From Cenarchaeum sp. (GTDB lineage Archaea; Thermoproteota; Nitrososphaeria; Nitrososphaerales; Nitrosopumilaceae): a stretch of 64,000 nucleotides of DNA. A program made the position numbers and the translations under genes. The notes beneath the pieces were generated by a model. The model did not search any database. It was not told where the DNA came from and saw only the letters and a list, made by a program, of their open reading frames with translations. Shown one piece after another: positions 1 to 55,767 of this stretch. Positions within the stretch are counted from its first letter, which is position 1. Each line of letters starts with the position of its first letter. The DNA lies in contig OZ242221.1 in the NCBI GenBank assembly GCA_965206845.1, positions 1,024,001-1,088,000 of the forward strand. Reading direction: 5' to 3'.

Positions 1-2188
1 CGAGTTCTCATCCGAGGTGTCCGCCCTGGCAGACACAGTGCGGGGATATGTGAATGATTACGGCGCAGACAAGGTGGGTGTGCTGTACATCGGGTTCGGC
101 GAGGTGCTGCCGTTCATGCAGTCCGCATCGGGCCACGCAGTGCTTTACGACGTAAGGTGGTTTGGCAGCGATGCCAACACGAATGATTTGAACCTCGTGG
201 AGGATCCCGCCGGACTGCAATTTGTAACCGATACCAGGTATACCACCGTGCAGGTGGCGTCGGGCAAGAATGATCTCAGCAGGTATGTGGACAGCTCGCT
301 GCAGACAAGCATTGGACGGATACCGAGCACGTACGCAAGCTCCGCATACGACATGATGTGGATAGCGGGACTTGCGATAGAGAGAGAGCAGAGCGTGGAT
401 GTTGCGGCGCTGACCAAGGCAATACCTGAGATTGCCGCGGGATACAATGGAGCCTTGGGCTCCGCCCGACTCAACGACTTTGGCGACCTGGCCCAGACAA
501 ACTACGACATATGGGACATCAGGGACGGCGTATGGACGGTGGCGGGAACGTACTTTGCATCCTCAGATACCATCAAGCATGACGACGGCACTGGGCTGTC
601 CGGTGAGATACAGATAGGCTCAATCCTGCCGCTCACAGGCAGGCTCTCAAAGCACGGTGAGGAGAACTGGGCAGCCTCTGTTCTTGCCACTGTAGACTTT
701 AACAAGTACCTGGCAGACAACAATGCAAACTGGTCGCTTAGCGCCGTAGTTGAGGATTCGCAGACATCGCCCACGGTCGCACTTGAAAAGCTCCAGGTGC
801 TGCATGCCAAAAGCATAAAGATCGTGCTGGGACCCGAGACCAGCTCCAACCTTCAGAACATAAAGGGGTATGCGGACGCCAACGAGATACTGCTCTTCAG
901 CTGCTGCTCCACGTCCCCGCTTCTTGCCATATCCGGCGATACGATATTCAGGATGGCACCGGATGACACCAACCAGGGCACCGCACTGGGCAAGATCTTC
1001 ACGGATGCAGGAATGGAGGCAGTGGTGCCGGTATGGCGCGAGGACGCGTGGGGCGTGGGACTTGTAGGGTCCGTGCGTGACTCATTTACGTCCAAGGGCG
1101 GCACGGTAGCCGACGGGCTTGGATACAACCCCGAGGCCAGCGACTTTTCGGCCGAGACGTCGCTCCTGGCAGAGATAGTGCGGGAGTATGTGGGCGAGTA
1201 CGGCGCGGACAAGGTGGCCGTGATGTACATCGGGTTCGGCGAGGGCCTGCTGTTCATGCAGTCCGCATCGGACCAGGAGATACTCAGTGACGTGAGGTGG
1301 TTTGGCACCGACGCCAACACCCGGGATCCGACATTCGTCGACGATCCGATAGGGCTTGAATTTGTAAATGATATCAGGTATACCACCGTGCAGGTGGCAT
1401 CGGGCAAGAACGACATCAGCAAGCGCGTGGACGAGTCGCTGGTGGCGGAGCTTGGAAGGGTGCCAAGCACGTATGCGAGCTCCGCATACGACGCGGTATG
1501 GGTCGTCGGCCTTGCGATGGATAGGGAACAGAGCACAGATGTCGCACTGCTGAGCCAGGCGATTCCCGAGATTGCCGCAGAGCACACGGGCGCCCTGGGC
1601 TCCACGCGACTCAACGACTACGGCGACCTGGCCCAGACAAACTATGACGTCTGGGACATCAGGGACGGCGTATGGACACTGGCCGGGACGTACTTTTCGG
1701 CCACTGACACGATCATGCTTGATGATGGCACGGTAGACACGCCTGACGAAGTAGTGCCGGACATGCCTGACGAAGTAGTGCCGGACATGCCTGACGAAAC
1801 CACGCCCCCTGGCGGATGCCTGATTGCGACCGCCGCATACGGCAGTGAGCTTGCACCGCAGGTCCAGTTCCTGCGCGAGATCAGGGACAACACGCTGCTC
1901 TCGACTGACTCTGGGACATCATTCATGACGGGCTTCAACCAGTTCTACTACTCGTTCTCCCCCGCTGTTGCAGACCTTGAGCGCGAGAATGTCGTGTTCA
2001 GGGACGCCGTGAGGGTGGCGATAACGCCTGGACTGTACACGCTGAACATAATGACGCTTGCGGACCAGAACTCTGATGCCTCGGTCATCGCATTTGGCCT
2101 ACTCGCGATTGCCGCCATGGCGGGCATCTATGTGGCAGGACCCGTCCTGGCGATACGCACCATCCGCAAAAGAGTAAGGCACGCATAG
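1..2188 (+). CDS. Tandem ABC-type (branched-chain amino acid/LivJ-like, PBP1) substrate-binding protein with C-terminal CFI-box-CTERM anchor; 5'-truncated by window edge
   Basis: Open frame from window start; repeated PBP domain (IGSILPLTG, SSAYD motifs); C-terminal GGCLIATAAYGSELAPQVQFLREIRD motif plus TM helix. Confidence 0.85.
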   Translation, partial: EFSSEVSALADTVRGYVNDYGADKVGVLYIGFGEVLPFMQSASGHAVLYDVRWFGSDANTNDLNLVEDPAGLQFVTDTRYTTVQVASGKNDLSRYVDSSLQTSIGRIPSTYASSAYDMMWIAGLAIEREQSVDVAALTKAIPEIAAGYNGALGSARLNDFGDLAQTNYDIWDIRDGVWTVAGTYFASSDTIKHDDGTGLSGEIQIGSILPLTGRLSKHGEENWAASVLATVDFNKYLADNNANWSLSAVVEDSQTSPTVALEKLQVLHAKSIKIVLGPETSSNLQNIKGYADANEILLFSCCSTSPLLAISGDTIFRMAPDDTNQGTALGKIFTDAGMEAVVPVWREDAWGVGLVGSVRDSFTSKGGTVADGLGYNPEASDFSAETSLLAEIVREYVGEYGADKVAVMYIGFGEGLLFMQSASDQEILSDVRWFGTDANTRDPTFVDDPIGLEFVNDIRYTTVQVASGKNDISKRVDESLVAELGRVPSTYASSAYDAVWVVGLAMDREQSTDVALLSQAIPEIAAEHTGALGSTRLNDYGDLAQTNYDVWDIRDGVWTLAGTYFSATDTIMLDDGTVDTPDEVVPDMPDEVVPDMPDETTPPGGCLIATAAYGSELAPQVQFLREIRDNTLLSTDSGTSFMTGFNQFYYSFSPAVADLERENVVFRDAVRVAITPGLYTLNIMTLADQNSDASVIAFGLLAIAAMAGIYVAGPVLAIRTIRKRVRHA
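59..1710 (+). repeat. Intragenic domain duplication with exact 1140-nt period
   Basis: taccaccgtgcaggtggc at 241 and 1381; ggcgacctggcccagacaa at 482 and 1622; tacggcgc..gacaaggtg at 59 and 1199. Confidence 0.9.
1741..1798 (+). repeat. 24-bp tandem repeat (2.4 copies) encoding PDEVVPDM linker
   Basis: gcctgacgaagtagtgccggacat x2 plus partial copy. Confidence 0.9.
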
Positions 2189-25605: not shown

Positions 25606-25731
25606 GGGAATTATATACTTCGGTTACAGAACCGTTGCCTTTTTCTGGTGCTCTGTCGATCCCTCCCACTCGTGGCTCTTGCGTGATGTCTGTGGAGCGG
25701 ACTGGGCAGCCCTGTCATGGAATCCCGCGCC
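25606..25731 (-). repeat. Inverted copy of element right end / candidate second omegaRNA scaffold
   Basis: Reverse complement aligns to 27425-27551. Confidence 0.85.
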
Positions 25732-25840
25732 AGGCAGGCGACAAGGATGGCTATGACGGTATGGACAGTCTGCATGGTCTGCATACTAATGACAGTGTTG
25801 CCGCGGCGCTTTTATGCGGTGTGGCATATTGCATGCGGTA

Positions 25841-27715
25841 ATGAAATCAATCGATATGGTGGCAACGGCGCTGGTAACGGTACCGGCGCCAGAAGCGAAA
25901 GCGAAACCGGCAAGGGAGGACACGGTGATCCGCACAATAAAGGTGGACTTTGGCCAGTCCGTGGCGCTGTCAGAGCTCATATCGCGCCTCATTGTGCAGC
26001 AGCGGTGGGCATACAACGTGGCCGTAGAGGAGATGCTGAATGACCCGACAGTAAGCAAATTTGATCTCAACAACAAGCTCACCGCGTGGAGGCAGAAGCA
26101 CGACTGGCTTGACGGCAACGTCTCTGTGCAACGGGCCGGGCTTGCCCAGGGAAGGGATGCCGTGCTGAAGTTTCTGGAATCAAACACTACAAAGCGCGCC
26201 CGCAGGATCATGTGGAAAGACAAATCCAAGAAATATAGAGAAAATAAAACGGAAAAAAATGACAAGAGGCTCAGGGAAGACGGAGATGGCGCCGGCGCAA
26301 ACCTGTCCCTGACCCCATGGAGTGGCAGAAAGAACAGGTGGAGCCACGAAAGCGACCTGTACAGGGCAAGGGGCGACAGGCAGGCGCTGTGTGTGTTTGG
26401 AAAGCCCGTGCAAAAGGACAACAACAGGATCATGCTACCGGGCATCGGCACAGTAGGCGTGCACGGCGAGATGATGGAATGGGACATGCGATCCTTCCAG
26501 CTTGTGGAGACAACCAAAAGGATCACCAGGCGCACCAGGGACCGCGACCGGACATACCGCCTCCACGTCAATGTCCGCATCAGAAAGCCCCGACCGGTGG
26601 AGTGTGATATAGTCCGTGGTGTCGACATGGGGATTGTCCACAACGCGACAACTGTGGACCTTGACACAGGCTACACGGAGTTCCACGACATGCCCAAGGA
26701 CTGCAGGAGGTCAAAGAACGATGAGGTATCGCGGATGCAGGCGGAGCTCTCAAGGAAGCGTGGAGGCAGCGGCAACCGGCGCATCAGGCAGAATGGTAAA
26801 GGCGACTGTCCCGGCAATGCCAGCATCAACGGCGGCACCAATGGGGACGGGAACGGCAGTAACAGCAAGCCGGGCAAATCGGGCAAGCAATGCAAGACCG
26901 TCGGGCCGAACCGCATCAACAGAAAGGCCAAGCGCGACAGGCCAAGGAAGCCCAAATCACGAAGTTACAAGGATCTGCAAAGGAAGATACAAAAAAAGCG
27001 GGAAAAGGTCGCCAACCGCCAGACGAACTGGGAGCGCCACGCGTCAAAGAAGATAGCCGACGGCGCCGGCACGGTGGCCATCGAGGATCTGAATATCAAA
27101 AACATGACGGCCAGGGCCAAAGGCAGTGGAAGCTCCGCCAAGAACGGCCTCAACCGCGAGATGGCATACTCCAGGCCGGGGACGTTCCAAAGGCGGATCG
27201 AGGGCGCATGCGCGAACGCCGGCGTGAAGGTAATCTCCGTTTATCCGGGGGGCACGAGCACCACATGCTACATGTGCGGCCGCAGGGACAAAGGCTCCCG
27301 CGTGTCGCAGGCCGAGTTCATATGCACGAATCACAAATGCGAATGCCACATCAACGCGGACGTCAATGCCGCGTATAACATTGCCGCCAGGGCGGCGGCA
27401 GGGCGGCGGGGAACGTCGTCCAAAGGCGCGAGATTCCAGGCCGGGATTGCTCCCGGACGCTCCGCAAACAACACGCAAGAGCCACGCGTGGGAGGGATCG
27501 CCGGAGCGCCAGAAAAAGGCAACGGTTCTGTAACCGAAGTATATAATTCCCTAAATAGGCTTCAAAACAATAGATCAGCAAGGTGTCCATGGGAGAAGAC
27601 TATCCGGAGTATGGTGAGGAGATCGGGTCCGCAGAGGTGCCAGAGGCAGACCCCTACAATTCCGACGTATTTGCAGAACCGGGACAGGCTCGGCACGATC
27701 CGGATATGGATCTGA
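25841..27715 (+). CDS. tnpB: Large TnpB-like RNA-guided endonuclease (copy 1)
   Basis: RWAYN, RuvC-I RGVDMG, RuvC-II IEDL, CYMC..C...C Zn finger, RuvC-III NADVNAAYNI; reads through the TIR. Confidence 0.88.
   Translation: MKSIDMVATALVTVPAPEAKAKPAREDTVIRTIKVDFGQSVALSELISRLIVQQRWAYNVAVEEMLNDPTVSKFDLNNKLTAWRQKHDWLDGNVSVQRAGLAQGRDAVLKFLESNTTKRARRIMWKDKSKKYRENKTEKNDKRLREDGDGAGANLSLTPWSGRKNRWSHESDLYRARGDRQALCVFGKPVQKDNNRIMLPGIGTVGVHGEMMEWDMRSFQLVETTKRITRRTRDRDRTYRLHVNVRIRKPRPVECDIVRGVDMGIVHNATTVDLDTGYTEFHDMPKDCRRSKNDEVSRMQAELSRKRGGSGNRRIRQNGKGDCPGNASINGGTNGDGNGSNSKPGKSGKQCKTVGPNRINRKAKRDRPRKPKSRSYKDLQRKIQKKREKVANRQTNWERHASKKIADGAGTVAIEDLNIKNMTARAKGSGSSAKNGLNREMAYSRPGTFQRRIEGACANAGVKVISVYPGGTSTTCYMCGRRDKGSRVSQAEFICTNHKCECHINADVNAAYNIAARAAAGRRGTSSKGARFQAGIAPGRSANNTQEPRVGGIAGAPEKGNGSVTEVYNSLNRLQNNRSARCPWEKTIRSMVRRSGPQRCQRQTPTIPTYLQNRDRLGTIRIWI
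27390..27551 (+). ncRNA. Candidate omegaRNA scaffold (copy 1 right end)
   Basis: Conserved among three copies with covarying hairpins; location expected for TnpB guide RNAs; 5' boundary approximate. Confidence 0.6.
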
Positions 27716-29338: not shown

Positions 29339-29500
29339 GGGAATTATATACATGAGTGTACAGTACCCATGCCTTTTGCTGGCGCTCTTGCATTGCCTCC
29401 CACGCTTGGCTCTCGCGTGTTGTTTGCGGAACGCGCGGGAGCAATCCCGCGCTGGCTTCTCGCGCCTTCAGACGACGATCCCCGCCGCCCTGCCGCCAAG
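29339..29500 (-). ncRNA. Candidate omegaRNA scaffold (copy 2 right end)
   Basis: Hairpins GCGCGGGA-TTGC-TCCCGCGC and CATGGGT...ACTCATG abutting TIR; 5' boundary approximate. Confidence 0.6.
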
Positions 29501-31113
29501 GCTTTCGCCTTGGAAGCAATGTTATGCGCCGCGTTTATGTCGGCGTTGACGTCATTGTAACAGTTGTCATTGGTGCAGCGGAACCTGCCCTGCGATGTGC
29601 GGGATTCCTTGTCCTTGCGCCCACAAGCGCTGCATGTTATGCTGGTGCCCTTGGGGTCCACCATAATTACAGTCACTCCGGCGTTCGCGCACGCCTGCCC
29701 GATCTGCTTTTGGAACGTTCCGGGCCGGGAATAGGCCATCTCCCTGTTTAGCCCCGTCTTGGCGGATCTTCCCTTGCCTTTGACCTTGGCGGTCATGTTG
29801 TTTAGGTTGAGATCCTCCATGGCCACGGTTCTGGCGCCATCGGCTATCTTCTTTGACGCGTGCCTTTCCCAGTTGGTCTGGCGGTTGGCTATCTTCTCGC
29901 GCTTCTTGCGGATCTTCCTTTGGAGTTCCTTATAGCTGCGGGACTTTGGCTTCCTTGTCTTGTTTTTGTTGTGGCCTCTGGTGTTGTTGGTGTTGCTGCT
30001 GCTGCCGCTTCTCGTGTTGTTGGTGCTGCTGCTGCCGCCGCTGCCGTTGGTGCCGTTCCCGAAGTCCGCGTCCTTGCTCCCGCCACCAGAGTCTTCATTG
30101 GTGTCCTGCCTGATCCTGCGGTTGCCCCTCCCGCCGCGCTTCTGAGAGAGCTCGGAGTACATCCTGGACAGGTCGTCGTCCTTGGAGCGCCTGCAGTCCT
30201 TTGGGAGGTCGTGAAATTTATGATGGCCGGTGCCGAGGTCTGCCGTGGCGGCGCCGTGGACTATGCCCATGTCCACGCCCCTTACGACCGCGGATTCAGA
30301 CGGCTCCGGGGCCTTGGTTTCGACCTGGATGTGGAGGCGGTACGTCCTGTTATGGTTCTCCGTGCGCTTCGTGGCCCTCTTCGTCGTCTCCACCAATTGG
30401 AATGATCGCATGTCCAATTTCTCCACGTCGCCGCGCACTCTCACGGTGCCGATTCCCGGTAGCATCACCATGTTGTCGCCTTTGTATACTGGCTTCTCAA
30501 ACACCGAGAGTGACCGCTGCTCCCCTTTCCTCTTGAACAGGTCATTGGTGTGGCTCCATTCGTTCCTCTTGTTGCTCCACTTGTTTGACGGCAGGTTTGA
30601 CGCGGTGTAGATGTCGATGTCCGGTATCCCCTCCTTTTCCCGGTCCCGTCTGGCCAGGTGTTTCCACAGGGACTTGTTGCTGCGCTTTTTCCCGTTGGAT
30701 GCCATGAACTTCTTTACGGCGTCCATGCCCAGCAGGAGGCCGGCCCTCTGCACCATGCAGCTGCAGGCCTCATTGCGTCCGGCGGCCCGCGCCTCCTTGT
30801 CATGGACGAGCCACGCCTTTGAGTTTCTCCATTTCGTTAGCATGTTGTTGAGGTCAAACTTGGTTGTCCTCGGGTCTTTCAGCTTCCCGCGCACGGCCAT
30901 GTTGAAGGCCCACCTCTGCTGGTCCATGTGGCGGGATATGAGATCCGACAGCTCCGCCGACTGGTCAAAGTCCACCTTTATGTTGCGGACCATTATGCCT
31001 TCCATTGAGCGTTTTGACCACTTTTTTGGAGCCGGCTCGGTCGCGGCAGCGGTTGCATCTGCTACCGCCGGCTCCGTTGCTGTTATTGCCGTTGCCGTCA
31101 TGATGGGTTTCAT
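29344..31113 (-). CDS. tnpB: Large TnpB-like RNA-guided endonuclease (copy 2)
   Basis: RGVDMG / MEDL / CSAC..C...C / NADINAAHNI; stop codon TAA lies inside the TIR. Confidence 0.9.
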   Translation of the reverse strand: MKPIMTATAITATEPAVADATAAATEPAPKKWSKRSMEGIMVRNIKVDFDQSAELSDLISRHMDQQRWAFNMAVRGKLKDPRTTKFDLNNMLTKWRNSKAWLVHDKEARAAGRNEACSCMVQRAGLLLGMDAVKKFMASNGKKRSNKSLWKHLARRDREKEGIPDIDIYTASNLPSNKWSNKRNEWSHTNDLFKRKGEQRSLSVFEKPVYKGDNMVMLPGIGTVRVRGDVEKLDMRSFQLVETTKRATKRTENHNRTYRLHIQVETKAPEPSESAVVRGVDMGIVHGAATADLGTGHHKFHDLPKDCRRSKDDDLSRMYSELSQKRGGRGNRRIRQDTNEDSGGGSKDADFGNGTNGSGGSSSTNNTRSGSSSNTNNTRGHNKNKTRKPKSRSYKELQRKIRKKREKIANRQTNWERHASKKIADGARTVAMEDLNLNNMTAKVKGKGRSAKTGLNREMAYSRPGTFQKQIGQACANAGVTVIMVDPKGTSITCSACGRKDKESRTSQGRFRCTNDNCYNDVNADINAAHNIASKAKALAAGRRGSSSEGARSQRGIAPARSANNTREPSVGGNARAPAKGMGTVHSCI

Positions 31114-31137
31114 TACCGCATGCAAATGCCAAATATG

Positions 31138-31145
31138 TATAAAAA
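31138..31145 (-). promoter_or_regulatory. TATA box of tnpB copy 2
   Basis: TTTTTATA 24 nt upstream of ATG; equivalent boxes in copies 1 and 3. Confidence 0.6.
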
Positions 31146-31518
31146 CACCGTGGCAATACCATGCAGACCATGCGGACCGTCCGTGCCGTCACGGCCATCA
31201 GGGAGTGGCAGGTTGCAGGCGCCCAGATGGGAGTGGATACTGTGTGGAGAGACCCGAACAAAAACCCTATCCGAGGGCAGCGTATGGCCATGTTTGCCGT
31301 ATATGATTCCCCGCGCCAGGGACGGAAAAACATGAACGGGACAACCCTGCCGGCCATACTAGAGGGGCATTCCGATCTCTTTGACAACAGAAACAGGACA
31401 TATCGCTTGGATCAACAGGCACTGCGGTTTGCATGCAGACGTTCACTCAACTATATAATCCCCTTGAGAAACGGCCCGCCCGCCACAAGTTCATATCCTG
31501 CGTCGGCGTACCCGATCC

Positions 31519-40339: not shown

Positions 40340-40439
40340 ACCTGCACTGTTCCCCTAATCTATTAATTCTTGTTTGTGTGGGGAATTGTGGTATATAGTT
40401 CCCATACGTTTAAAATTCTTGGAGCCCCCCCGGCATCGT

Positions 40440-51028: not shown

Positions 51029-51724
51029 GATACACAAAACAAAAAGGCCGTATATACGCTTTATCCAACGAATGGCCCTGTCCAAAAGGGAGGAGTTAGG
51101 CCTCCAGCTCTGCCGGCCCGGCTGCCACCGGAACCGTCAAAGCCGGAGACCCAGCTTCTCCTTTCTGTACAGGGCCGCCAGCATCACGTACAATATAGAT
51201 CTGTCCGTATTGTCCAAATATTGTCTAAGCCGATACGCCTGGGATGGTTTGGTTTGGGAATTATATAGTTAAGTGAACTGCCGGCGCCGCCACACGGCCG
51301 TGGCCTCCCGTCCCGGCCGATCATGCGGTTCGGCAGACCGGTCTTCCCGGTTCCAGACCGGCCGGCGGCTGTCCGGGTTTTTTGACGCCGACCTGCATCC
51401 CGGGGCAGGCAGGAGCCCCGGAAAGCTACGGCTTTGTTGCGCCTTTCATATAGGCAAATGCCGGATCCATACTTGGGATGCAGTCTCAGACCGATCCGGC
51501 ATTGTAAGACGAGAATTGCATTCAAAAGCGGCCAAAACCCGTCCTTTTCGGGCTTTTTGTTCCGAGAGCCGTTCATGCGCGATGCCGGCCCGGCGCCAGT
51601 GAAGGCCTGAAACGCGCCGGCAGGCGCAGCGGAAATGACGGACGTGACAGTGCGGACGGTCCGCACGGCCGGAGCGGCACCGCCATATCTCCTTTTTATA
51701 TTCGGCAGGTATTTGCATGCGGTA

Positions 51725-53413
51725 ATGAAACCCATCATGGCAACCGCAATTGCGACAACGGTAGCGGCAACAGCAACGGCAACCGAGCCGGCACCAAAAA
51801 AGTGGTCAAAGCGCTCAATAGATGGCACCATGATGCGCACCATAAAGGTGGACTTTGATCAGTCGGCCGAGATGTCGGATCTCATATCGCGCCACATGGA
51901 CCAGCAGAGGTGGGCGTTCAACATGGCCGTCAAGGAGAAGCTGAAAGACCCCAGGACGACAAAGTTTGACCTCAACAACATGCTCACAGGATGGAGAAAC
52001 GGAAAGAAGTGGATGAATGGCGGCTTCCTTGCGCAGAGGGCCGGCCTCCTGCTGGGCTTGGACGCGGTAAAGAAGTTTATGGACTCCAACGGCAAAAAGC
52101 GCCGCAACAAGTCATTATGGAAATACCTGGCCAGGCGCCACAGGGAAAGGGAGGGCATCAATGACATCGACATCAACACAGCGCCCAACCTGCCGTCCAA
52201 CAGGTGGAGCAACAAGAGGAACAAATGGACCCACACCAATGACCTGTTCAAGAGGAAGGGGGAGCAGCTGTCCCTCTCGGTGTTCGCGAAGCCGGTGCAT
52301 AAGGGCAACAACATGGTGATGCTCCCCGACATAGGCACCGTAAAAGTGCACGGCGACGTGGAGGGGCTCGACATGCGATCCTTTCAGCTGGTGGAGACGA
52401 CGAAGAGGACCACGAAGCGCACCGAAAGCCACAACAGGACGTACAGACTCCACATCCAGATCAGGACAAAGGCGCCGGAGCCCGCGGAATCCGACACCAT
52501 ACGCGGCATCGACATGGGAATCGTCCACGGCGCCGCCACCGTCGACCTAGATACCGGCCGCCACGCGTTTCATGACCTCCCAAAGGACTGCAGGAGGGCC
52601 AAGGACGACGACCTGTCCAGGATGTACTCCGAGCTCTCACGGAAGCGCGGCGGGAGGGGCAACCGCAGGATCAGGCAGGACACCAAGGAGGGCGCGGACT
52701 GCGGGAACGGAGCCAACGATAAAGATAACGGTAACGGCGGCGGCAACACGAGCGGCAGCATCGGCAATAACAACACGCACGGCCACAAAAAAAACAAGCC
52801 GAGGAAACCAAAGTCAAGAAGCTACAAGGAACTCCAAAGGAAGATCAGGAAAAAGAGGGAAAAGCTTGCCAACCGCCAGACGAACTGGGAAAGGCACGCG
52901 TCAAAGAAGATAGCCGATGGCGCTGGCACAGTGGTCATGGAGGACTTGGACCTCGTGAACATGACTGCAAGGGCCAAGGGAAAGGGCAGCTCCGCCAAGA
53001 CCGGGCTCAACCGCGAGATGGCCTATTCCCGGCCCGGCACGTTCCAGCGCCAGATCGGGCAGGCGTGCGCGAACGCCGGGGTGACCGTCATAATGGTGGA
53101 TCCCAAGGGCACGAGCATCACATGCCACCAGTGCGGCCGCGAGGACGGGAACTCCCGCGTGTCGCAGGGCAGATTCAAATGCGCCAATGACAACTGTTAC
53201 AATGACGTCAACGCGGACATCAATGCCGCGTATAATATTGCCTCCAAGGCGAAAGCCGTGGCGGCAGGGCGGCGGGGATCGTCGTCTGAAGGCGCGAGAA
53301 GCCAGCGCGGGATTGCTCCCGCGCGTTCCGCAAACAGCACGCGAGAGCCAAGCGTGGGAGGCAATGCAAGAGCGCCAGCAAAAGACATGGGTGCTGTACA
53401 CTCATGTATATAA
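51725..53413 (+). CDS. tnpB: Large TnpB-like RNA-guided endonuclease (copy 3)
   Basis: RGIDMG / MEDL / CHQC..C...C / NADINAAYNI; TTTTTATA 24 nt upstream; stop in TIR. Confidence 0.9.
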   Translation: MKPIMATAIATTVAATATATEPAPKKWSKRSIDGTMMRTIKVDFDQSAEMSDLISRHMDQQRWAFNMAVKEKLKDPRTTKFDLNNMLTGWRNGKKWMNGGFLAQRAGLLLGLDAVKKFMDSNGKKRRNKSLWKYLARRHREREGINDIDINTAPNLPSNRWSNKRNKWTHTNDLFKRKGEQLSLSVFAKPVHKGNNMVMLPDIGTVKVHGDVEGLDMRSFQLVETTKRTTKRTESHNRTYRLHIQIRTKAPEPAESDTIRGIDMGIVHGAATVDLDTGRHAFHDLPKDCRRAKDDDLSRMYSELSRKRGGRGNRRIRQDTKEGADCGNGANDKDNGNGGGNTSGSIGNNNTHGHKKNKPRKPKSRSYKELQRKIRKKREKLANRQTNWERHASKKIADGAGTVVMEDLDLVNMTARAKGKGSSAKTGLNREMAYSRPGTFQRQIGQACANAGVTVIMVDPKGTSITCHQCGREDGNSRVSQGRFKCANDNCYNDVNADINAAYNIASKAKAVAAGRRGSSSEGARSQRGIAPARSANSTREPSVGGNARAPAKDMGAVHSCI

Positions 53414-53418
53414 TTCCC
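53258..53418 (+). ncRNA. Candidate omegaRNA scaffold (copy 3 right end)
   Basis: Near-identical to copy 2 tail; terminal hairpin ACATGGGTG-CTGTA-CACTCATGT; 5' boundary approximate. Confidence 0.6.
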
Positions 53419-53616
53419 TAGCAAAACGGGTCAAGTCCGAGGGCAGAGCGCCGTGGCGCATCCCACCGGCCATTCCTTTGGGTCGTGCAGTGCAGCAGGA
53501 TTCGCATGATGTGGCTCTGTCCGCTGCTGCCGTCCTTCCGGGATGTCCCTGCGGTTCTGTGGGGCGTCTGGTGAGGGTGCGCGCGCCAGACCGCCTGCAT
53601 GTCATGCCGGAATGGC

Positions 53617-55735: not shown

Positions 55736-55767
55736 GGTGTTACTGTATGTAATTCCCTATTAAAACG

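Follow-up and report, generated by a model that had tools for sequence, protein, structure and literature searches.

The stretch analysed here, 64,000 nucleotides of the genome of the archaeon Cenarchaeum sp. (contig OZ242221.1, positions 1,024,001 to 1,088,000; hereafter the window), carries three copies of a transposable element whose single gene is tnpB, and the right end of one of them (copy 3), window 53261-53418, probably encodes an omegaRNA scaffold that would serve the element's own TnpB nuclease. Roughly three chances in four are given to this reading, in which the RNA-guided function is argued by analogy. The omegaRNAs of TnpB proteins overlap the 3' end of the nuclease gene, and their guide comes from the DNA next to the element. 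A preliminary description of the region had proposed such an RNA, defined by three covarying hairpins and ending with the terminal inverted repeat (TIR) of the transposon.

Copy 3 is a 2163-bp (2.16-kb) element bounded by 12-bp inverted ends, GGGAATTATATA on the left and TATATAATTCCC on the right (coordinates of this and all other features are given in Table 1). The right-hand word and its complement occur nine times in the window at one mismatch or fewer, where 0.07 occurrences would be expected, and in copy 3 the word comes right after the terminal hairpin, as had been described. The host genome is archaeal, 1.65 Mb in one contig and 99.99% complete; an archaeal signal recognition particle RNA is present in the window. 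A 220-base right-end query finds 21 places in this genome, and pairing of inverted ends yields 15 full-length elements of 1.83-2.64 kb together with a 706-bp miniature; the latter lies outside the window (genome 938659-939364), has the TIR GGGAATTATATT, no long frame and no recognisable target-site duplication (TSD). Direct repeats of 8 bp and of varied sequence stand outside the TIRs, perfect in ten of the 15 own-genome copies and matching at 6-7 of the eight bases in three more. Among the three copies in the window only copy 2 has a clean one, TTTCTCAA; copy 1 has a poor one, with five of eight bases alike, and copy 3 has none, with one of eight alike, so that of the two TSDs reported earlier the one at copy 2 stands while that at copy 3 is not duplicated at the left junction. 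Likeness between the copies stops exactly at the outermost base of the TIR (53418 in copy 3), the flanks being unrelated from copy to copy. In contigs of two sequencing runs from related populations (X5 and X6) the right-hand flank of copy 3, from 53420 on, is attached to unrelated sequence, and this junction together with the absent TSD suggests that copy 3 lies at the site of a rearrangement or has lost its left partner. A 16-base word from the end of the joined contig has no exact match in the own genome, and its two matches there at two mismatches are unrelated.

RNAalifold, run on the right ends of the 15 own-genome copies, gives a fold of six helices, which reads from 5' to 3': hairpin A; a long-range closing stem around hairpin B and a two-part hairpin; an A-rich linker; the terminal hairpin; and 11 unpaired bases of the TIR. 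The three hairpins of the preliminary description are found in copy 3 where it had placed them, and the differences that it quoted between copies are seen in a three-way alignment; the closing stem and the two-part hairpin are additions, so that its covariation has held up while its count of helices has not. In an alignment made with MAFFT from the 15 full-length copies and fitted to no structure (alignment A3), the six helices comprise 37 pairs, and 97.6% of the 553 cells are paired. Both sides change in eight of the 37, for example at the closing pair of hairpin A (GC in seven copies, CG in six, AU in two) and, in helix 5, at three pairs out of five. The alignment scores 0.247 for covariation and shuffled ones 0.128, none of 500 shuffles reaching the observed value, and when partners are slid by 1-3 columns as a control, pairing falls to 36-52%. 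A covariance model built from the own-genome copies (R1) also finds full-length matches in other genomes of the archaeal family; in 40 sequences from five genomes, in an alignment which is fitted to the model and therefore leans towards the structure, both sides change in 29 of the 37 pairs, and none of 500 shuffles does as well on any of five measures. One pair of the long-range closing stem is GC in 19 of these sequences and CG in 16. Single-sequence folds from nine other subfamilies have the same order of parts, with a middle that differs in length and sequence. No family of Rfam 15 matches here at the gathering threshold, and at E values up to 10 there is only a chance-level match to mgtC_leader on the other strand; inspection by eye, with no program, found no covarying partner for a pseudoknot with the conserved loop A(A/G)CCAA or with the UUGC loop of hairpin B.

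It is the tnpB strand that carries the covarying structure, which overlaps the end of an intact gene, as had been proposed for it. The forward strand folds at -66.7 kcal/mol (z -2.54), a value equalled by 3 of 200 shuffles, and the reverse strand at -55.0 (z -0.76), equalled by 42 of 200. Two pairs of helix 1 are G-U in all 15 copies, and helices 4 and 6 have more of them; read from the opposite strand such pairs would be A-C, and they and the fold energies alike thus favour the strand of tnpB. In the body of tnpB the variable columns at codon positions 1, 2 and 3 number 66, 51 and 121 of 152, and the corresponding counts for the final 146 nt are 22 of 49, 23 of 49 and 20 of 48; the codon periodicity is gone, which indicates a constraint on the RNA and not on the protein. 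The end of the frame differs between copies and is not conserved: nine of the 15 stop at a TAA in the TIR and one stops 14 nt before the end, four have no stop before the end of the element, and in one the gene is broken further up. In copy 1 the frame, 25814-27715, continues for 164 nt beyond the right end into the flank.

In every full element there is a single long frame, read towards the right end. The product of copy 3 matches Cas12f1-like_TNB of Pfam at 3.3e-15, as well as OrfB_IS605, and reaches 115.8 bits with the NCBIfam profile NF040570 (guided_TnpB; cut-off 100), covering positions 5-389 of 389. The RuvC residues D227, E370 and D462 and the zinc-finger cysteines C431, C434, C450 and C455 are invariant in an alignment (A5) which takes in relatives only 31-34% identical, and most copies retain both the catalytic residues and the zinc finger. 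The nearest natural relative with a solved structure is ISDra2 TnpB (8bf8, E 3.2e-22), though an AI-designed nuclease, 9yyg, scores higher. The catalytic Glu E370 stands 61 residues before the zinc finger (C431), the canonical arrangement of TnpB. The own-genome TnpBs also have an insertion of about 70 residues between RuvC-I and RuvC-II (window 52690-52800 in copy 3, and at the same place in copies 1 and 2), of low complexity, rich in Gly, Asn and Ser and then in Lys and Arg, which is absent from relatives in another genus.

Four runs of RNA libraries were consulted as assembled Logan contigs, from which starts, ends, strand and levels of transcripts cannot be read. In three metatranscriptome runs of one study, contigs span 53201-53384 at 95% likeness or better. 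Word depth on that interval is 346-940, as against 5-8 on the neighbouring guaA and 4-107 on pieces of tnpB; because the region is multi-copy (19 model matches in the own genome) and contig depths cannot rank the parts of a gene, this is a hint only. One contig, from a run whose RNA nature is a guess, extends 19 bases beyond the TIR into the flank of another copy. At window 53231-53238, about 25 bases before the first base of the scaffold, the RuvC-III codons read TATAATAT, and this word could serve as the TATA box of a separate scaffold transcript; since the RNA contigs start upstream of it, the idea stays a passing thought.

The scaffold, as had been proposed, stops exactly at the outer edge of the TIR, whose inner half is the 3' arm of the last hairpin, and the break between copy and flank at this point is what would be expected of a guide supplied by the flank. 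If, as analogy suggests, the guide starts at the first base of the flank, it would begin with the TSD. In 27 insertions from seven genomes with at least six of eight TSD bases matching, the left TSD is preceded by G in 25 and by A in two (binomial p about 1.5e-11, taking the frequency of G as 0.30). After the right TSD, C occupies the mirror position in just seven of 26, and an equivalent G is found at two of 13 transposase-proximal ends of relatives in the IS1595 family of transposons. Within the TSD, T occupies position 1 in 19 of 27, position 3 is A or T in 24 and position 4 in 22, while positions 5-8 are variable. A base that is specific to one orientation and lies beside the presumed target is what a target-adjacent motif (TAM) would leave behind, and on this pattern the G at -1 is put forward as a candidate TAM. 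The preliminary description had raised a problem of self-discrimination, in that the TSD exists at the left junction as well. The TSD is indeed there, but the problem is weaker than had been thought: at the left junction only the eight TSD bases match the presumed guide before the TIR begins, and at the right junction, where the match to the guide is full, it is preceded by the TIR (...TTCCC), that is by C in place of the G of the reconstructed empty sites, so that self-targeting is not forced.

The following course of events would accommodate these features. The RNA would be cut from the tnpB message, or transcribed with it, and run on into the flank, its guide being copied from the 8-bp duplication and the DNA behind it. 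TnpB loaded with this RNA would recognise and cut a site that is unoccupied, or from which the element has been precisely excised (upstream flank, one copy of the TSD, right flank), and the cut would favour restoration or spread of the element by way of recombination; the filled site would be spared by the ...CCC of the TIR in place of G at the right junction and by the mere eight matching bases at the left. Mobilisation would come in trans from a DDE transposase of the IS1595 family. A further suggestion, more tentative than the scaffold itself and thought possible though doubtful, is that the G at -1 is at once a one-base TAM and a mark of survivorship: the transposase would insert into AT-rich 8-mers and be indifferent to this base, and only those insertions would persist or spread whose empty or precisely excised site (G, TSD, right flank) can be cut again by TnpB and omegaRNA of the element itself, with a guide starting with the TSD.

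The main rival keeps the omegaRNA and shifts its register to one like that of the Fanzors, with the 3' TSD, or part of it, belonging to the scaffold, the 5' TSD and the G before it forming or containing the TAM (for example G-T-N-W-W), and the guide starting inside or after the TSD. In solved Fanzor structures, as given in the available text of a 2026 review (PMC13565253), the 5' TSD is indeed read within the TAM and the scaffold contains the 3' TSD, and the conserved target positions tallied above, G at -1, T at 1 and A or T at 3 and 4, do straddle the edge of the TSD. A TAM must, however, abut the heteroduplex, and with positions 5-8 variable a guide that starts after the full 8-bp TSD would have no fixed TAM beside it; the order of Glu and zinc finger is moreover that of canonical TnpB and not the rearranged Fanzor type described in the same review. 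This register fits poorly with a TSD of 8 bp whose last four positions vary, and is held to be improbable, though less so than the two explanations taken up further on, which dispense with the guide.

The TIRs of 12 bp and TSDs of 8 bp and varied sequence are not traits of IS200/IS605 elements, which, according to the portion of the review available, have neither TIRs nor TSDs and insert beside a fixed word of 4-5 nt; as the mechanisms are defined there, TIRs and TSDs exclude those of both IS200/IS605 and IS607. The own genome has no match to the Y1 TnpA profile PF01797, which matches in six of 14 control genomes. In a sister genus, transposases of the IS1595 family are numerous and several of them lie in elements with the identical 12-bp TIR. 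One element of 2046 bp (L238) has GGGAATTATATA...TATATAATTCCC around a transposase of 319 amino acids, with a TSD alike at eight of eight bases; two IS1595 transposase elements of 2131 bp (L232 and L237) have the same 12-bp TIR and TSDs of eight of eight, and L077, L079 and others share the left TIR. NF033547, the profile for IS1595-family transposases, gives 174.5 bits with L077 and 160.2 bits with L061, the latter being the single IS1595 transposase gene of the own genome (genome 27527-28465, reverse strand, outside the window; 309 amino acids). Homology among the IS1595 elements of the sister genus (L247, L252, L249, L253 and others) comprises the transposase half and the TIRs, the other kilobase differing, which suggests exchangeable cargo modules in an IS1595-type shell. 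The elements of the window, having TnpB, no transposase, and ends and TSDs of IS1595 type, are best read as non-autonomous cut-and-paste shells of that type, which carry TnpB as cargo and are mobilised in trans.

The 3' arm of the terminal hairpin lies within an extended TIR (...ACTNNTGTATATAATTCCC) common to the transposase-bearing IS1595 relatives, so that the same bases serve the transposon end and the RNA. This would also suit an explanation in which the structure acts at the level of DNA, as binding sites for the transposase or as hairpins at the end of the element, with no part in guiding; the presence of the terminal hairpin at the left end of some copies, and the persistence of right ends lacking TnpB in genome G139 of the survey below, point the same way. 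The hairpin is nevertheless found at all 15 right ends, and at the left only in copies with long inverted repeats (about six of 15), which makes it mostly specific to the right end and more than a by-product of the TIR; most left ends lack even this hairpin, and five of the six helices are in the TIR-free part, at the right end only. TIRs and TSDs imply a double-strand DDE mechanism, which has no need of a multi-helix fold of 150 nt; and with invariant G-U pairs and a fold energy specific to one strand, and a long-range closing stem that covaries as above, a role in DNA is very unlikely. Equally hard to credit is the view that the tnpB message has a structured 3' end which serves for stability, termination or the control of translation and supplies no guide, TnpB being inert or domesticated. 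The position of the structure at the end of an open frame with its stop codon in the TIR would allow this, but against it stand the intact catalytic residues and zinc finger of most copies, the perfect TSDs of recently mobile elements, a position and size matching known TnpB omegaRNAs, and the lack of a U-run behind the terminal hairpin, where UAUAUAAUUCCC comes instead.

Matches to R1 are found in nine of the 151 genomes searched of the archaeal family, belonging to three of 27 genera (the own genus, one of nine genomes in a second and seven of nine in a third), and in three of 151 genomes sampled across the order. A scan of species-representative genomes with a protein pattern gave 15 loci, which come from three records only, each titled 'MAG: Nitrosopumilus sp.', and the same kind of scan of JGI metagenome contigs found no relative. 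A DNA pattern for hairpin A picks out at least 121 stretches of JGI sequence; 80 loci were searched with R1 and none matched beyond the seeded 19 bases. In G139, two of the scaffold loci (L024 and L039) have a word like the left end only 367-398 bases upstream of the scaffold, and the scaffold loci of this genome may be miniature elements with little beyond ends and scaffold.

Several observations weigh against an omegaRNA of the kind proposed, or against parts of the scheme. All eight model matches in G139 lack a frame of TnpB length running into them, which indicates that the end can outlast the gene, as would be expected of a transposition signal. The pair counts across genomes were made on the alignment fitted to R1, and would be expected to favour its structure. 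The frame is open through the scaffold in most copies, and the tail may be translated. Characterised omegaRNAs are not known to have a spacer as long as the 11 unpaired TIR bases that here separate the last helix from the guide. That the RNA reaches the flank, and where in it the guide would start, are both taken over from the known TnpB systems. The G at -1 could be the target preference of a transposase, and two of the 27 insertions lack it. The only IS1595 transposase gene of the own genome, L061, has one TIR-like end, GGGGCTTATATC (also given as GGGGCTTATATCGCTGAGTACAC), which is similar but not identical to the TIR, and no second, partner end was found for it in that genome.

Two of the elements carry a duplicate of the scaffold at the left end. 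In copy 1 the left end carries an inverted, partial second scaffold reading outward, and in a second element (genome 1188043-1189924) a comparable duplicate lies at 1189769-1189924 on the forward strand (R1 132.6 bits); both elements thus have outward-facing scaffold sequence at their two ends. Lone TIR-like words with one mismatch each occur at window 31300-31311, 40392-40403 and 55746-55757, the first within copy 2, in its left part and 150 bases in from the outer left end, the other two having no partner end. A direct repeat of 300 bases, 77% alike, is found at window 1-300 and 1141-1440.

Table 1. Coordinates of the elements, candidate scaffolds and related features (window positions unless marked otherwise).
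Feature	Position	Strand	Details
Copy 3, whole element	51256..53418	+	2163 bp; from TIR pair and family alignment
Copy 3, left TIR GGGAATTATATA	51256..51267	+	G at 51247, 9 bases before the TIR
Copy 3, tnpB	51833..53413	+	526 amino acids from ATG 51833; stop TAA 53411-53413 within right TIR
Copy 3, candidate omegaRNA scaffold	53261..53418	+	158 nt; RNAalifold, pair counts, model R1 192.4 bits, strand asymmetry, codon periodicity absent
Helix 1 (hairpin A)	53267-53274 / 53280-53287	+	
Helix 2 (long-range closing stem, five pairs)	53291-53295 / 53372-53376	+	
Helix 3 (hairpin B)	53307-53312 / 53317-53322	+	hairpin B in copy 3: 53305-53312 / 53317-53324
Helix 4 (outer part of two-part hairpin)	53326-53329 / 53357-53360	+	
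Helix 5 (inner part of two-part hairpin)	53338-53342 / 53352-53356	+	
A-rich linker	53377-53384	+	
Helix 6 (terminal hairpin)	53385-53393 / 53399-53407	+	
Copy 3, right TIR TATATAATTCCC	53407..53418	+	unpaired 3' end of scaffold; first T pairs in helix 6
Copy 3, presumed guide template (flanking DNA)	53419..53438	+	conservation ends at 53418; putative role, by analogy with TnpB omegaRNAs
Copy 1, whole element	25606..27551	+	1946 bp
Copy 1, scaffold	27395..27551	+	model R1 178.4 bits; genome 1051395-1051551
Copy 1, left end: inverted partial second scaffold, outward-reading	25606..25759	-	95-nt inverted repeat, 93% complementary; R1 86.6 bits; genome 1049606-1049759 (-)
Copy 2, whole element	29339..31463	-	2125 bp; tnpB at 29344-31125
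Copy 2, scaffold	29339..29496	-	model R1 190.3 bits
Copy 2, right TSD TTTCTCAA	29331..29338	-	equals first 8 bases of presumed guide
Copy 2, left TSD TTTCTCAA	31464..31472	-	TSD at 31471-31464; preceded by G at 31472
Scaffold matches in genome G139	L024, L027, L030, L033, L036, L039, L042, L044		none with TnpB-length frame

Among known systems, the elements resemble the TnpB-omegaRNA systems of IS200/IS605 (ISDra2; PDB 8bf8, 8exa and 8h1j) in having a full-length TnpB with the RuvC D-E-D and the zinc finger, and a structured RNA which takes in the 3' end of the gene and stops at the right transposon end, with a variable flank directly behind. They differ from them in their 12-bp TIRs and 8-bp TSDs, in a genome without Y1 TnpA, in a TIR that is the 3' end of the scaffold, in a target duplication that makes up the first eight bases of the flank, and in having no match in Rfam 15. 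With the IS1595 family they share the 8-bp TSDs and the 12-bp TIR found on transposase-encoding elements, from which they differ in carrying TnpB and no transposase. The ISNwi1 group of ISfinder reportedly has ends of the form ggnnatTAT and variants with passenger genes.

TnpB in DDE transposons has already been reported. Altae-Tran et al., 2023 (PNAS, PMC10691335), in the portion of the paper available, describe DDE-associated TnpBs in transposons with inverted terminal repeats, in branches DDE-1 to DDE-6, and solo TnpBs whose ends are those of transposase-bearing elements, and place the 3' end of tnpB 250 bp or less from the transposon end; the present elements are like these in all three respects, with TnpB inside an inverted-repeat transposon, the ends of transposase elements, and the end of the gene near that of the element. 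That portion gives no RNA structure or TAM for the DDE-associated elements. The families named are IS630 in its main text, and ISL2, IS630 and IS1031 in the corresponding part of the 2026 review; IS1595 appears in the consulted part of the supplement of PMC10691335 only within a profile list, and the IS1595-type family described here may or may not be among DDE-1 to DDE-6. By titles and abstracts, a literature search on TnpB with IS1595 gave no such element; one on TnpB with Thaumarchaeota and insertion sequences found nothing, and one on names of ammonia-oxidising archaea had none with TnpB among the matches listed. A paper on Haloquadratum (PMC3119063), considered and set aside, concerns, in the part available, IS605-type elements without TIRs or TSDs and has no bearing here. 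There is a likeness, too, to the Fanzors of eukaryotic transposons with TIRs and TSDs, in which the nuclease is the cargo of cut-and-paste elements that make TSDs, and whose guide RNA, as the available text of the review has it, runs through the transposon end into non-conserved flank; the present system differs in its prokaryotic host, the canonical position of the RuvC-II Glu, and a TSD that is 8 bp and variable where that of Fanzor transposons is a short fixed word usable as a TAM.

To what was known, this family adds a scaffold supported by covariation, a TIR that is used twice, a shell of IS1595 type with autonomous partners, and the G at -1 as a TAM candidate. How OMEGA nucleases serve DDE transposons with variable TSDs is named as an open point in the part of the 2026 review at hand. 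A one-base TAM, if true, would mean nucleases of roughly 450-530 amino acids with an unusually wide targeting range, and the survivorship suggestion, if true, would make these elements natural evidence for restorative homing, driven by OMEGA, of a DDE transposon with variable TSDs and a one-base TAM; should the TAM hypothesis fail, they would still represent an ordinary, well-documented omegaRNA for a TnpB housed in a DDE shell. With many recently mobile copies, clean junctions, a scaffold of 158 nt, transposase-bearing partners and a concrete TAM hypothesis, the family offers a compact natural test case.

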